DNA from: Deltaproteobacteria bacterium
GTDB taxonomy: Bacteria > Desulfobacterota > Desulfobaccia > Desulfobaccales > 0-14-0-80-60-11
Length of the DNA: 64,000 bases
Assembly: GCA_016875015.1 (NCBI GenBank)
Contig: VGSJ01000002.1
Span: forward strand, 12,465 to 76,464
Reading direction: 5' to 3'
Position numbers and translations under genes: made by a program. Shown here one piece after another: positions 12,437 through 20,554 of the stretch (the stretch's first letter is position 1; each line of letters opens with the position of its first letter). The notes under the pieces are model-generated. The model was not told the origin of the DNA. It saw only the letters and a list, made by a program, of their open reading frames with translations, and did not search any database.

Positions 12437-12709
12437 CTAGCAGAGCCAGCAGCCCTGCTCCCGGATCTCCTCGTACCACTTGACCAGAAGTTGGCGCGCC
12501 GTCGGTTTGTCCACCACCAGGAGCCGGCGCACCCCGGCCATGTCAATGAACCCGCCGAAATAGGCGAACTTCACCAGGCCCTCTAAGTTTTCCGGGGAGA
12601 ATTTCCAGGCCCGCTCCGGCACCCGCTCCCACATCTCTTCGGCCTGGATGATCTCCCGCACCTGGGCAAAATGGCTCTCGAGCCTGGCGGCACGCTCTGC
12701 CGGGGTCAC
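12437..12709 (-). CDS. Hypothetical 90-aa protein, translationally coupled to the upstream protease gene
   Basis: The ATG lies 3 nt after the protease stop. Ends ...EQGCWLC. No family recognised. Confidence 0.5.
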   Translation of the reverse strand: MTPAERAARLESHFAQVREIIQAEEMWERVPERAWKFSPENLEGLVKFAYFGGFIDMAGVRRLLVVDKPTARQLLVKWYEEIREQGCWLC

Positions 12710-16730: not shown

Positions 16731-17585
16731 CTAAAAAATTTTAGCAAGATAGCCGAAACTATTAATTTTTGCCCCTTTAAAATAATGAGTCAGCCCTTCT
16801 TCAAAAATAATAAGTTCTTCATATCGTTCCCTGATTTTCGACTCTAATAAATCTTTCTCAAGGAGGGTTATTGGATATCTTACGATGCCATCTTTCATCC
16901 CATCCGGTAATTGACCCGGACCATTTCCACTATAGTTTGATGTCTGTATTGTAATAATTTGCCCAATATTATGCTCTAAAAGGGGCAATCTAGTGAGAAA
17001 GATATATTCCGCCGCACATTTCAAAATATCATCAATAGCTTGAAGAGGGTTCGGCACATATTGCAATGCAGATGATGAAAAACAAAGATCTACTCCGTTA
17101 TAAGCTGCAATAGCTTCATTGATATCTTCAAAAAATCTCAACTTACCATCTTCTAATAATTTTCCTTTCTGAACCATATTGTGGGTTTCTACGACATGCC
17201 ATTTCACTTCGATACTACCATTAAGGAAATGATTAGCTAAAAAGTAATGCGCCCCACAACCACCGCCAAAATCAACGACCCTCAATATTTTTTTCTTAGA
17301 TAAAACAGATATAATTAATAGTTGCCTGCTTATTGCATAATCAGCCATTAACGGTTTTTGACTATAGACCTTGTCACGCCAACATTTTGTCTTCTCATAT
17401 ACTACATCTGCTAGATAATCGTTTGAATATCCCGTATGACATTGTAATAATGCCTCATTGTATGAACTGAAATTAGTCGGCAAAAGCTCAGTATTTATAT
17501 ATCTCCTGACTGTCTGAGCCAGGGTTTTCGAGATGAAGCCCTTAAAATTAATGGTCATCTCCTGCCCCTTGGATTTTTTCGCCAT
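16731..17585 (-). CDS. Class I SAM-dependent methyltransferase, TIGR04325-like
   Basis: F.SYNEAL..C.GYSNDYLADVV.EKT N-terminal region, then VVDFGGGCG (SAM motif I). The gene is clearly AT-richer than its flanks. Confidence 0.7.
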   Translation of the reverse strand: MAKKSKGQEMTINFKGFISKTLAQTVRRYINTELLPTNFSSYNEALLQCHTGYSNDYLADVVYEKTKCWRDKVYSQKPLMADYAISRQLLIISVLSKKKILRVVDFGGGCGAHYFLANHFLNGSIEVKWHVVETHNMVQKGKLLEDGKLRFFEDINEAIAAYNGVDLCFSSSALQYVPNPLQAIDDILKCAAEYIFLTRLPLLEHNIGQIITIQTSNYSGNGPGQLPDGMKDGIVRYPITLLEKDLLESKIRERYEELIIFEEGLTHYFKGAKINSFGYLAKIF

Positions 17586-18179: not shown

Positions 18180-18848
18180 ATGAAGGTTAAATTAGTCTTG
18201 GGTATCGTATGCTTAGCCCTGATGTGCGCAGTTCCCGGGGCTCAGGCCGCCACACTTCTCTGGAATAACGGGGCCCCCGACAGTGTTTGGGGAGCGGAGA
18301 TGGCTTCATATCTGCCCGCGAATGATTTTACCTTCGGTTCTTCCCAGACGGTGACCAACGTGCGTTTTTGGGCAGTCGCCGCGGATGGGTTTGGAACTCC
18401 GGATCCTGGCGTTTACAATAATAGCATCGTTTGGCAAATTTATGATGACGGCGGCGGCCAACCCGGCAGCCTCCTGAATTCCGGGACAGCCGCACCGACC
18501 CCGGTTTCAAGCCATGCTACCGGTTGGGGCCAATCGTACCGGTTTGATTTTTCTATCACCCCAACGACTCTGGGGCCAGGCGCCTATTGGCTCGCGCTTC
18601 ACAACGGCCCCATGACAACGCAAGGCGACTCTAACTACTATTGGGAATCAAGCGGCACAGGGGGTGTTCTGGCTTATGCTGCGGCCGCTGGAGGTGGTGC
18701 CTGGGGTCTTTGGGAGACTTATCCTTTAGGTGCTTCCTTCGCCTTTGAACTGTACAACGGTAATCCGGTTCCCCTTCCCGGGGCCGTCTGGCTCCTGGGT
18801 TCCGGTCTGCTGGGCTTGATCGGCTTGAGGAAGAAGTTGAGAAGCTAG
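18180..18848 (+). CDS. PEP-CTERM sorting-domain protein
   Basis: Signal peptide. C-terminus VPLPGAVWLLGSGLLGLIGLRKKLRS is the canonical PEP-CTERM motif plus TM helix plus basic tail. GGAGAG SD. Confidence 0.9.
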   Translation: MKVKLVLGIVCLALMCAVPGAQAATLLWNNGAPDSVWGAEMASYLPANDFTFGSSQTVTNVRFWAVAADGFGTPDPGVYNNSIVWQIYDDGGGQPGSLLNSGTAAPTPVSSHATGWGQSYRFDFSITPTTLGPGAYWLALHNGPMTTQGDSNYYWESSGTGGVLAYAAAAGGGAWGLWETYPLGASFAFELYNGNPVPLPGAVWLLGSGLLGLIGLRKKLRS

Positions 18849-18908: not shown

Positions 18909-19069
18909 CCGGCCTGAATAAAGACCTGATGGCGAGTTGCGGTCAAAAATTTACAGGCGAAACGTAGGGGCGCATCTAGGTATGAGCCCTCAGGGGGGAC
19001 GCCTAGTGGTTTTTAAAATGAGCTGGCTCATATTTTTAGCAATCTTGTTGGGCCTGGGACCCCCATACA

Positions 19070-19101
19070 TAAAAAAATGGCCGCATGGACTCTGCGGCCA
19101 T
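19070..19101 (-). terminator. Rho-independent terminator of the TAC operon
   Basis: The minus strand reads ATGGCCGCA-gagtcca-TGCGGCCAT followed by T7. It lies 30 nt after the chaperone stop. Confidence 0.8.
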
Positions 19102-19130
19102 TATATCAATTTGTCAGGTGAAACGAAGGA

Positions 19131-19688
19131 TTAGGTATTAACCTTCTTGCGCCGGGGGGATTCCTTTTTGACAGGCTGATTTTCGACTTTTTTCGCCGGG
19201 GTTTTTTTCAGCACAATTTCCAACAGGGGCACCGTCAGCGCCGGAAAACCCATGCGGGAGCTCATGCTCTGCACAAACTCCCGCCAATAAGGCCAGGCAT
19301 GGGAGATGGGATTGATCCGAAAAAAATACTCTAAATCGTCAGGACCAACTTCAAAATCATCCGGGACAGCAGGAGCCTGATAAACATAAGATGTGCAAAA
19401 GGAGGCCTCAATTTTCATAACGAGTTTATCCGGCGATTCAGCGCTAAATGCAGCAACCTGAAAATTGCAGTGGATTTTATCGATGAGAGGCTTATCTTTT
19501 TCATACCAAAGAGACGTGTCGCATTTATGCTCCAAGGAAAGAGTGTCGGGAAACGCAATCAATGGGTCGCGGGTGATTTTCGCGTCAACCAGATAAATTT
19601 CTTTAAGGACATACCGTTGAGCTACGCCGACAGCCCTTTCCATATCAAGATTTTCAATAGCTACTTCCAACATAGCATTCTTATTCAT
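19131..19688 (-). CDS. SecB-like chaperone (TAC system chaperone)
   Basis: HAWPYWREFVQSMSSRMGFPALTVPLLEI aligns with E. coli SecB [29 protein letters not shown]. 185 aa with a Lys-rich tail. It is the third gene of the toxin-antitoxin operon. AAGGGGTG SD. Confidence 0.75.
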   Translation of the reverse strand: MNKNAMLEVAIENLDMERAVGVAQRYVLKEIYLVDAKITRDPLIAFPDTLSLEHKCDTSLWYEKDKPLIDKIHCNFQVAAFSAESPDKLVMKIEASFCTSYVYQAPAVPDDFEVGPDDLEYFFRINPISHAWPYWREFVQSMSSRMGFPALTVPLLEIVLKKTPAKKVENQPVKKESPRRKKVNT

Positions 19689-19699
19689 TTAAGCACCCC

Positions 19700-20107
19700 T
19701 TAATTAACAATGGCGGCTTGTGCAGAATAGCCATCAGCGAAGGTAAATTCAAATGACTCCCGAGTAACCACAGGAATCTTGGGAGGTGTATAGGTATTCT
19801 TTAATGCTATGATATTGCTTTCTTGTCTTGGCTTACCTTCTTTAAAAGGTTTGAGGGAAGCTCTATACCCTAAGACGTGGAGAATATCAGCCACAGTTCG
19901 CAGAGTAAGATTCCGGCCGCCATTCAATAATTGAGAGATAAACCCCTTTGATTTCCCTAAACGGTCGGCCAGTTCTTTCCTGGAAATCTTCTCATTATCC
20001 AAAAGCTCACAAATGGTTTCAGTAACTTCTAGAATCAAATCTTCTTGAGCAAAAAGCCTCCGGAATTCTTCATCCTTTAGGTACTCATCCAGGATTGTAG
20101 TTTTCAT
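19700..20107 (-). CDS. XRE-family HTH antitoxin (HigA-like) with C-terminal extension
   Basis: ISRKELADRLGKSKGFISQLLNGGRNLTLRTVADIL is the HTH_3 core, followed by about 55 aa beyond the HTH. Start moved to MKTTILDEY, 4 nt after the toxin stop. Confidence 0.8.
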   Translation of the reverse strand: MKTTILDEYLKDEEFRRLFAQEDLILEVTETICELLDNEKISRKELADRLGKSKGFISQLLNGGRNLTLRTVADILHVLGYRASLKPFKEGKPRQESNIIALKNTYTPPKIPVVTRESFEFTFADGYSAQAAIVN

Positions 20108-20111
20108 TTTA

Positions 20112-20519
20112 TTAATCCCCACATAACACCTTATTTTCAAAGGTTTTCTTTATTTCGATCATTTTATCAATTTCTGTTTGGTCTGTATCATCACGCTTTT
20201 TGAGACAACCATGCGTAATAACTATGTGAAAACTGTTGATATAGAAAAAGAAAAATCTGGTTTTGGAAATATGCACATCTCTGAATTCGTAAAACCCTGA
20301 GGCCTTTTTCCCCTTTAATTTTGCGAGTAAGTCAGTATTGATAGTTTTTCCATGGTTGGCAAAATATTGGATGATTTTCAAAACTCTTGCTTGATGAATT
20401 TTTGACAATTCTTTTCCATTTAAAAATTTTTTCGCCGGGCATTGACCGGTGGGAGACAAGAAAAAATCAACCCTCACTTTCTTCCCGAAGACAAAGGGCT
20501 CGCTGCGCGGTCTCGGCAT
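20112..20519 (-). CDS. Gp49/HigB (RelE-fold)-like toxin
   Basis: F....G.CPAKKFL......K..ARVLK...........LAKLKG..ASGFYEFRDV...TRFFFFY......VITHGCLKK...T...EIDK follows the pattern of the phage Gp49-like/HigB family. It lies upstream of the antitoxin, as in higBA. Confidence 0.75.
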   Translation of the reverse strand: MPRPRSEPFVFGKKVRVDFFLSPTGQCPAKKFLNGKELSKIHQARVLKIIQYFANHGKTINTDLLAKLKGKKASGFYEFRDVHISKTRFFFFYINSFHIVITHGCLKKRDDTDQTEIDKMIEIKKTFENKVLCGD

Positions 20520-20526
20520 GTCATTT

Positions 20527-20554
20527 AGTTTATATAAACATAAACATTTGTCAA
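20527..20554 (-). promoter_or_regulatory. TAC operon promoter with palindromic operator
   Basis: Minus strand: TTGACA, 16 nt, TAAACT, then only 7 nt to the toxin ATG and no SD. The perfect palindrome GTTTATATAAAC (20528-20539) overlaps the -10 hexamer and spacer. Confidence 0.55.

Follow-up and report, generated by a model that had tools for sequence, protein, structure and literature searches.

A probable HigBA-class toxin–antitoxin–chaperone operon with a divergent SecB-like chaperone in a Desulfobaccales-like deltaproteobacterium

Three families of toxin–antitoxin (TA) pairs, HigBA, MqsRA and HicAB, have been reported to occur with SecB-like chaperones (PMC5105189), and the chaperones of the published toxin–antitoxin–chaperone (TAC) systems are only 14–19% identical to each other at the extreme (PMC5105189). 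The antitoxins carry chaperone-addiction (ChAD) regions, which are disordered, variable in sequence and length, and recognized through aromatic residues (PMC5105189; bioRxiv 10.1101/2024.02.24.581848; PMC6377645). In Mycobacterium tuberculosis (Mtb) the TAC consists of HigB1 (Rv1955), HigA1 (Rv1956) and SecB-TA (Rv1957). Geobacter lovleyi, a classical deltaproteobacterium, has a HigBA-class TAC, Glov_3492–3490, with a short ChAD (antitoxin residues 86–115) and an experimentally validated chaperone dependence (Bordes et al. 2016, PMC5105189), while the HigBAC system of E. coli NT1F31 is antiphage (Mets et al., bioRxiv 10.1101/2024.02.24.581848). Here we describe a three-gene module in a 64,000-nucleotide stretch of DNA (the window; positions 12,465 to 76,464 of contig VGSJ01000002.1, assembly GCA_016875015.1). 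An earlier note, made from the letters alone, had read the module as a Gp49/HigB-like toxin, an XRE antitoxin with about 55 residues past its helix-turn-helix (HTH) domain and a SecB-like protein that lacked annotation, arranged in the toxin–antitoxin–chaperone (T-A-C) order of Rv1955–Rv1957. Homology searches and modelling of the genes indicate, with a probability of roughly 85%, that the module is a chromosomal type II HigBA-class TAC operon with a divergent, unannotated SecB-like chaperone; its presumed working follows the TAC paradigm (PMC5105189, PMC6377645, PMC9098466).

Assignment of the 185-aa third protein to a family by direct search was tried and given up, since Pfam, NCBIfam and a single-sequence PDB search gave nothing or E=0.5, and profiles and a structural model were required. 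The AlphaFold2 (AF2) model of the protein has a predicted local distance difference test score (pLDDT) of 81 and a predicted TM-score (pTM) of 0.75. It comprises a short N-terminal helix, a four-stranded antiparallel sheet with long strands, a 30-residue helix and an extended segment, and this order of elements agrees with the published Rv1957 fold (PMC6377645). When the model was compared with the PDB by Foldseek, the top 18 matches were all SecB-family chains, which gives the SecB fold that the earlier note had made its proposal depend on. The best match was chain 5mtw_A, Rv1957 bound to a HigA1 ChAD peptide (E=2.7e-8, TMt 0.73), and SecB of H. influenzae and E. coli came next (E ~3e-6, TMt 0.6–0.7). 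Sequence profiles pointed the same way. A 44-sequence profile (A1) matched Rv1957 over nearly its full length at E=0.011, and hhalign against an Rv1957 fragment gave E=5.9e-5. Exhaustive profile searching yielded 2,014 cluster representatives (50% clustering) at E<=1e-3, and a profile made from 115 of them (A5) matched Rv1957 at E=5.3e-16, the best sequence-profile match, and H. influenzae SecB at E=0.002. Identity is as low as ~16% to both Rv1957 and export SecB. Predicted fold and profile similarity identify the third protein as a SecB-like chaperone, with Rv1957 as its nearest relative of solved structure.

A match to PF02556, the SecB family in Pfam, had been expected from the first reading and was not found. 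Calibration of the Pfam model showed that the Rv1957 fragment itself reaches only 17.5 bits, below the cutoff of 26, so that the missing match is normal for TAC chaperones. E. coli SecB scored 196 bits. Within the chaperone family, 23 of the 115 members do match PF02556, and a relative at locus L022, which is related to the window chaperone at E ~1e-29, scores 30.4 bits.

The most conserved motif of the chaperone family, R145-M-G-F-P-A-L-T-V-P154, lies in the loop after helix α1 and aligns with L154-P-P-L157 of Rv1957, the loop that binds ChAD residue Y114 in Mtb and in which mutations impair ChAD binding most severely (PMC6377645). Beside the fold, a helix-end motif of the form …PY.RE…R….P.L…, which reads WPYWREFVQSMSSRMGFPALTVPL in the window, is common to the protein and export SecB of E. 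coli and H. influenzae. The C-terminal tail sets them apart. Residues 165–185 have pLDDT <50, and in both the Desulfobaccales-like and the Planctomycetota clades (loci L007–L085) this tail has kept its K/R-rich character, whereas in export SecB the C-terminal tail is acidic (PMC6377645), an acidic tail or surface serving there for SecA binding. We found no description of a basic C-terminal tail for TAC chaperones in the TAC literature that we consulted. The Planctomycetota chaperones additionally carry K-rich N-termini.

The toxin matched Pfam Gp49 (PF05973, E=9e-8), as had been anticipated. A profile built from 30 toxins of related loci and searched against the PDB matched S. pneumoniae HigB (6af3, E=5.5e-14) and the Mtb TAC toxin HigB1/Rv1955 (7nbu and 7awk, E=5e-4). 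Residues E78, R80, R88 and K107 of the window toxin align with E66, R68, R77 and K95 of Mtb HigB-TAC, which belong to its catalytic pocket and of which K95 is needed for toxicity, the K95A mutation abolishing it (PMC9098466). R88 and K107 never vary in the toxin family alignment, and E78, T102, H103 and G104 hardly do. With its pocket residues kept and under purifying selection, the toxin looks catalytically competent, and it is presumably a RelE-fold ribosome-dependent mRNA endonuclease.

The antitoxin gave an HTH_3 match over residues 35–82 (E=2.2e-9), in line with the XRE assignment, and its AF2 model, made with 36 homologs, has helices at residues 5–9, 13–39, 43–50, 54–61 and 69–78. It aligns with the 97-aa HigA chain 6af3_B up to the end of that protein at about residue 89, leaving ~45–50 residues extra. 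Residues 83–135, a ~53-residue tail close to the length first proposed, are predicted to be disordered, with pLDDT <50 and no secondary structure in the model, and contain the aromatic residues Y106, F119, F121, F123 and Y127. Such a tail is present in 60/60 related genome loci, with a length of 31–64 aa and a median of 4 aromatic residues. It thus has the published properties of a ChAD and is a putative chaperone-addiction region. By eye, no clear pattern of co-clustering between tail type and chaperone subtype was seen.

Natural variants bear on whether tail and chaperone belong together, a link that the earlier note had flagged as inference. A subgroup of antitoxin homologs, 106–115 aa long, has a near-identical HTH domain and a short tail without the aromatic patch. 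One such locus, L086, has a toxin ~75% identical and an antitoxin HTH ~85% identical to those of the window and carries murB directly downstream, and no chaperone signal was found there in any frame at E<=10. A further 80 loci came from a metagenome scan for which a short-tail antitoxin served as the query. Among loci with a complete antitoxin and at least 300 nt downstream, counts that are not prevalences given this seeding, a chaperone was present at 43 and absent at 2 with a long-tailed antitoxin, while it was present at 1 and absent at 20 with a short-tailed one (43/45 versus 20/21). L087 and P0238 were left out, their contig being too short or no DNA being available. With kinship among the loci ignored, Fisher's test gave p ~9e-13 when L115 was counted as chaperone-less, and counting it as chaperone-bearing strengthens the association. 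This locus had appeared to be a long-tailed antitoxin without a chaperone, and was ruled out as such when a chaperone was found at its positions 1014–1448, running off the contig end. The sole short-tail locus with a chaperone, L088, is a frameshift-ridden assembly, and the 'tail' of the two long-tail loci without one (L121 and L122) consists of the antitoxin linker joined to the basic C-terminus of the chaperone.

Alignment of chaperone-less with TAC loci by blastn showed how the short forms are built. Similarity ends 110–169 nt before the antitoxin stop and resumes within the last 78, 66, 40 or 35 nt of the chaperone gene, or past its stop, with the same downstream flank thereafter. The chaperone-less forms are thus deletions that took the ChAD and the chaperone core together, in at least three junction classes. 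Such joint loss is what would be expected if losing only the chaperone were lethal, and it fits chaperone addiction, under which the antitoxin would then be unstable and the toxin free, while loss of tail and chaperone together would give a viable two-gene system; laboratory deletion of a ChAD likewise makes the TA pair chaperone-independent (PMC5105189; bioRxiv 10.1101/2024.02.24.581848). The co-deletion pattern therefore lends comparative support to a functional coupling of antitoxin tail and chaperone. In the chaperone-less loci L108, L121/L122, L131 and L136, the basic chaperone tail persists as a new antitoxin C-terminus.

Several observations weigh against the assignment as a TAC. The 185-aa protein alone had no match at all in Pfam or NCBIfam, with PF02556 absent even at E<=1, and the single-sequence PDB search returned only Rv1957, at a non-significant E=0.5. 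The window antitoxin ends in …AAIVN and not in an aliphatic Ala-Ala or Val-Ala degron of the ClpX type, and only 32/61 relatives' antitoxins end in degron-like AA (28) or VA (4). The ratio of nonsynonymous to synonymous divergence (dN/dS) of the tail, 0.5–2.2 and noisy over only 47 codons, could belong to a binding element that evolves fast or equally to a linker under weak constraint. The seeding of the scan and the ignored kinship, given above with the counts, belong here too. As for the degron, Val-Ala is found in Mtb HigA1 and Ala-Ala in CmdA, while E. coli HigBAC is independent of ClpXP (bioRxiv 10.1101/2024.02.24.581848), and a C-terminal ClpX-type degron is accessory, not defining, for TAC systems.

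A scan of one genome per species gave 79 loci, which include metagenome-assembled genomes (MAGs) of Desulfobaccales-like or Syntrophobacterales bacteria (46–65% chaperone identity) and many Planctomycetota (~30%). The order of Gp49 toxin, HTH antitoxin and chaperone, with tight spacing, was found in 59 of the 69 loci that have at least 900 nt upstream, and it is kept from Desulfobaccales-like bacteria to Planctomycetota; together with the matches of the toxin and chaperone profiles to Rv1955 and Rv1957, this upholds the likeness to the Mtb operon that was first noticed. The remaining loci comprise one with a HicB antitoxin (L022), two with MqsA-like antitoxins (L042, L075), divergent Gp49 and HTH pairs such as L025 (Pfam-confirmed) and L077 (by eye), fragmented copies (L024, L048), two at which open reading frame (ORF) calling failed (L050, L079) and one that was not assigned (L067). 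In the MAGs of L024, L048 and L088 the chaperone, and sometimes the antitoxin, is split into 2–3 frames, and L088 has a split PolX and murB too; frameshifts from sequencing or assembly are a likelier explanation here than true pseudogenes. Outside these clades, a small, non-mobilizable Acinetobacter baumannii plasmid, pA52-3 (NZ_CP034095.1, 843–2462; L169), encodes a hypothetical protein, an MqsA-family antitoxin and a 'preprotein translocase subunit SecB' in overlapping genes, and four further Acinetobacter plasmids give similar chaperone matches. To judge from its genes, L169 has the look of a plasmid-borne TAC, and PGAP gave its chaperone the name of an export factor. Its chaperone, whose gene directly follows and overlaps the antitoxin gene, is related to that of the window (tblastn E=3e-6, 24% identity, 82% of query); the plasmid modules differ from the window module in having an MqsRA-class TA pair, in being plasmid-borne and in belonging to Gammaproteobacteria.

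That PGAP gives plasmid relatives this name, that the fold is common to H. influenzae and E. coli SecB at E ~3e-6, and that Rv1957 partly replaces E. coli SecB (PMC6377645) could all be taken to mean that the third gene is a general export SecB or a housekeeping paralog beside an ordinary HigBA pair, the antitoxin tail being an unrelated linker. We consider this highly improbable. The chaperone gene lies 11 nt from the antitoxin gene within one promoter–terminator unit, inside a TA operon and not alone in a housekeeping context as an export SecB gene would be, and has the low GC of the module, not that of the genome. Its relatives in two phyla always follow a HigBA, MqsRA or HicAB pair. The protein is closer to Rv1957 than to export SecB in both sequence and fold, lacks the PF02556 match, and ends in a basic instead of an acidic tail, and the chaperone is lost together with the antitoxin tail.

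The features of the locus are collected in Table 1.

Table 1. Features of the TAC module and its immediate surroundings (window coordinates)
Feature	Position	Strand	Size	Description
Toxin gene (T)	20112–20519	minus	135 aa	Gp49/HigB-like
Antitoxin gene (A)	19700–20107	minus	135 aa from ATG 20107	XRE/HTH_3 with tail
Antitoxin residues 1–82	19862–20107	minus		N-terminal helix and XRE/HTH_3 DNA-binding domain
Antitoxin tail, putative ChAD	19700–19861	minus		Residues 83–135 and stop codon; predicted disordered, aromatic patch …TYTPPKIPVVTRESFEFTFADGYSAQAAIVN
Chaperone gene (C)	19131–19688	minus	185 aa	SecB-like
Chaperone core	19209–19688	minus		Residues 1–160; SecB fold (AF2, Foldseek, profiles)
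Chaperone C-terminal tail	19131–19208	minus		Residues 161–185 and stop codon; K/R-rich (KKTPAKKVENQPVKKESPRRKKVNT)
Sigma-70-type promoter-like site	20527–20554	minus		TTGACA (20554–20549), 16-nt spacer, TAAACT (20532–20527); 10/12 positions match
Candidate operator	20527–20546	minus		Direct repeat TGTTTA TGTTTA and inverted repeat GTTTA-N8-TAAAC; overlaps spacer and -10
Intrinsic-terminator-like hairpin	19066–19102 (hairpin 19102–19076)	minus		AATGGCCGCA-N7-TGCGGCCATT, then T-run; marks operon 3' end
murB remnant	19006–19031	minus		ATGAGCCAGCTCATTTTA…; first ~7 codons of murB
PEP-CTERM-like protein gene	18180–18848	plus	222 aa	N-terminal signal-peptide-like hydrophobic stretch (by eye), C-terminal PEP-CTERM-like anchor
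Second low-GC patch	16731–17585	minus	284 aa	GC ~0.36; protein without Pfam match

The three genes are co-directional and separated by 4 nt (T–A, 20108–20111) and 11 nt (A–C, 19689–19699), exactly as the earlier note had given them, and the peptide strings that it quoted were all found. An alternative start of the antitoxin at an upstream TTG (20140) would give a protein of 146 aa; since the homologs begin MKTTILDEYL, the ATG at 20107 was preferred. The promoter and terminator that had been ascribed to the module also have counterparts in the sequence, a promoter-like site and a terminator-like hairpin with its T-run, both conserved in related loci. In an alignment of the upstream regions of 11 distinct loci (the window, L008, L009, L013, L014, L087, L090, L092, L094, L095 and L099), both hexamers are essentially invariant while the surrounding sequence varies, and the distance from the -10 hexamer to the toxin ATG, 7 nt in the window, is conserved at 6–7 nt. 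No Shine-Dalgarno motif was found in the 7 nt between the -10 and the toxin ATG, and with this short spacing conserved the toxin mRNA is probably leaderless; GGGG(A) motifs sit before the start codons of the antitoxin and the chaperone. The tandem TGTTTA repeat and the GTTTA/TAAAC inverted repeat are near-invariant across the aligned loci. We infer that these repeats, which overlap the -10, are an operator through which the HTH antitoxin would repress its own operon; their conservation could partly reflect promoter function alone. The terminator stem of 10 pairs, 6 of them G-C, has arms that are 100% complementary, and it is kept, with a variable loop, in 8/8 related TAC loci compared.

Each of the three genes has homologs in the hundreds. 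Pairwise dN/dS was 0.10–0.28 for the toxin, 0.04–0.10 for the HTH region of the antitoxin and 0.19–0.54 for the chaperone. Together with the conserved synteny, these homologs and this purifying selection establish that the three ORFs are real genes and not chance ORFs. A 185-aa protein identical (100%) to that of the window occurs on 14 contigs, and the six places listed for it are lake metagenomes and sequencing-run assemblies; the NCBI label on this protein sequence is a 'Deltaproteobacteria bacterium' MAG. The module has a GC of 0.41 against 0.55–0.65 in its flanks, and GC at third codon positions of 0.38–0.49, the SLT_2 and PolX genes beside it having 0.82–0.86, and it is indeed the low-GC patch that it was first taken for.

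The earlier note went on to call the module an autonomous, horizontally acquired unit. The low GC stands, and recent acquisition does not. More than 60 related loci have the module in the same slot, PolX, a divergent SLT_2 gene, T-A-(C) and murB, with SLT_2 identities of 61–90%, and in each deltaproteobacterial relative examined the GC of the module is ~20 points lower than that of its flanks. Recent horizontal acquisition as the cause of the low GC was accordingly rejected, the slot and the ~20-point deficit being the same across the clade. Since it occupies one SLT_2–murB slot across so broad a clade, the module is an old resident of the lineage and not a recent arrival. With respect to integration hallmarks, no tRNA genes were found in 10–30 kb of the window and no Rfam matches in 15–24 kb, and nothing indicates tRNA-targeted insertion.

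Long residence in the slot need not mean simple vertical descent. The toxin is 94–95% identical to that of the window in L013 and L094 and 34% identical in L106 and L113, while the antitoxin and chaperone are ~58–84% identical across L013, L008, L094, L106 and L113. L013 has a toxin 95% identical and a chaperone 58% identical to those of the window. Synonymous divergence (dS) differs up to five-fold between genes of one locus pair (L013: T 0.12, C 0.60). The switch of toxin type within the slot, from 95% to 34% identity with the antitoxin and chaperone at ~60–77%, and the unequal dS suggest that the module is a mosaic, formed by recombination or replacement among TAC variants at the SLT_2–murB slot.

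On the downstream side the window departs from its relatives. Compared with the murB that follows the TAC terminator in L008, L013 and L021 (MSQLILENHPL…), the window keeps a remnant of the start of the gene, after which similarity stops abruptly, and no murB was found elsewhere in the 64-kb window, although the gene comes immediately after the module in more than 60 related loci. A rearrangement at the start of murB, specific to this lineage, is indicated. The gene for the 222-aa protein converges on the TAC terminator and takes murB's place as downstream neighbor; its product scores 19.6 bits on the PEP-CTERM Pfam model, against a cutoff of 20.7. The displacement of murB may also have brought in the 284-aa low-GC gene, which lies ~1.5 kb past the TAC on the rearranged side.

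The truncated murB, the strongly atypical GC and the frameshifted or fragmented copies at L024, L048 and L088 raise the question whether the module is what a mobile element has left behind, decaying and without function. This is a very unlikely account of a locus with three intact ORFs whose chaperone is 100% identical on contigs of several independent samples. It retains the residues that align with catalytic and chaperone-binding positions, its toxin, HTH region and chaperone have dN/dS values well below 1, and its promoter and terminator are conserved; the fragmented copies come from assemblies in which housekeeping neighbors are split too, which suggests sequencing errors.

If the module is a TAC operon, it would work as follows. 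The toxin would enter the ribosomal A site and cleave mRNA, so that translation stops. The antitoxin would neutralize the toxin and probably repress the operon through the repeat overlapping the -10. Its tail would make it prone to aggregation or degradation unless a chaperone tetramer binds the aromatic patch, probably through the conserved F-P-A-L loop. When the chaperone is titrated by unfolded clients, or possibly by a phage protein, the antitoxin would fail and the toxin would be released.

The last step leaves room for a possible, though doubtful, extension, namely that the module, in the manner of E. coli HigBAC or CmdTAC, is mainly an antiphage abortive-infection system in which the chaperone is the sensor and a phage structural protein competes with the antitoxin tail. 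It does not contradict the TAC assignment, as it concerns the trigger and the biological role. TACs have been found to defend against phage with the chaperone acting as a sensor (bioRxiv 10.1101/2024.02.24.581848). PADLOC gave weak matches of the chaperone to PD-T4-9_C (E=1.6e-3), of the antitoxin to PDC-M64B/C (E=1.5e-10) and of the toxin to NsnC (E=3.9e-5), and the chaperone matches the phage protein families phrog_16879 (E=2e-15) and phrog_20189. In the CmdTAC/PD-T4-9 system itself the toxin is the mRNA ADP-ribosyltransferase CmdT, whereas that of the window is Gp49/HigB-like, and the likeness is confined to the chaperone. Evolution has been much faster in the chaperone and the antitoxin tail than in the toxin and the HTH region, as could be the case for a sensor in an arms race; recombination, indicated by the unequal dS within locus pairs, is an alternative cause of these rate differences. 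The module lies outside any defense island, with the housekeeping neighbors SLT_2, PolX and, in relatives, murB, and its single chromosomal slot across a broad clade looks like that of a domesticated resident. Among 50,697 phage genomes only two partial matches were found (29–42% of query, one in an unannotated region). The housekeeping neighborhood and the long residence in the slot do not settle the choice between stress response and phage defense.

Set beside the described systems, the TAC operon proposed here comes closest to that of Mtb. In both, the order is T-A-C, the toxin is a Gp49-like HigB whose catalytic residues align, and the HTH antitoxin ends in a disordered extension with aromatic residues; the chaperones have one fold and a matching ChAD-binding loop. 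They differ in that the tails are unrelated, with a patch ESFEFTFADGY in the window and W108/R110/Y114 in Mtb; that the window chaperone is as divergent as stated above and carries the K/R-rich tail; that the window antitoxin ends in IVN and not in a Val-Ala degron; and that the host is a Desulfobaccales-like deltaproteobacterium from lake water. E. coli NT1F31 HigBAC likewise joins a SecB-like chaperone to a HigBA pair; its chaperone recognizes the disordered ChAD through aromatic residues, and ChAD removal confers chaperone independence, which the natural short-tail variants parallel. Its ChAD of 96 residues has four regularly spaced aromatic motifs, whereas the window tail of ~50 residues has one clustered patch. 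For the window module the analysis yielded no evidence of a defense role or of a phage trigger, and its likeness to this antiphage system, as to the Geobacter TAC, is one of description.

A further reading, which we regard as improbable, is that the chaperone and ChAD form a fast-evolving, exchangeable sensor cassette long kept at the SLT_2–murB slot, and that the basic tail has a function undescribed for SecB-like TAC chaperones. If so, the basic tail could hold the chaperone at ribosomes or RNA and so allow the antitoxin tail to be caught during its translation, or it could alternatively bind DNA together with the antitoxin. Fused to the antitoxin after collapse of a TAC to a TA pair, the basic tail could matter in two-gene descendants too.

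The TAC operon that we favor leaves the known paradigm unchanged, and its value lies in confirmation and annotation. The 185-aa protein and at least 300 of its close relatives are labelled 'hypothetical' and have no Pfam domain, and the label of a SecB-like TAC chaperone would annotate many three-gene modules in two groups whose TA and defense biology has been little studied, Desulfobaccales-like bacteria and Planctomycetota. Laboratory ChAD removal has its natural counterpart in the joint deletions of tail and chaperone, which also supply matched pairs, such as the window module and L086 or L089. Two leads emerge for the biology of the family: the basic tail of the chaperone, and the conserved low-GC slot next to murB.

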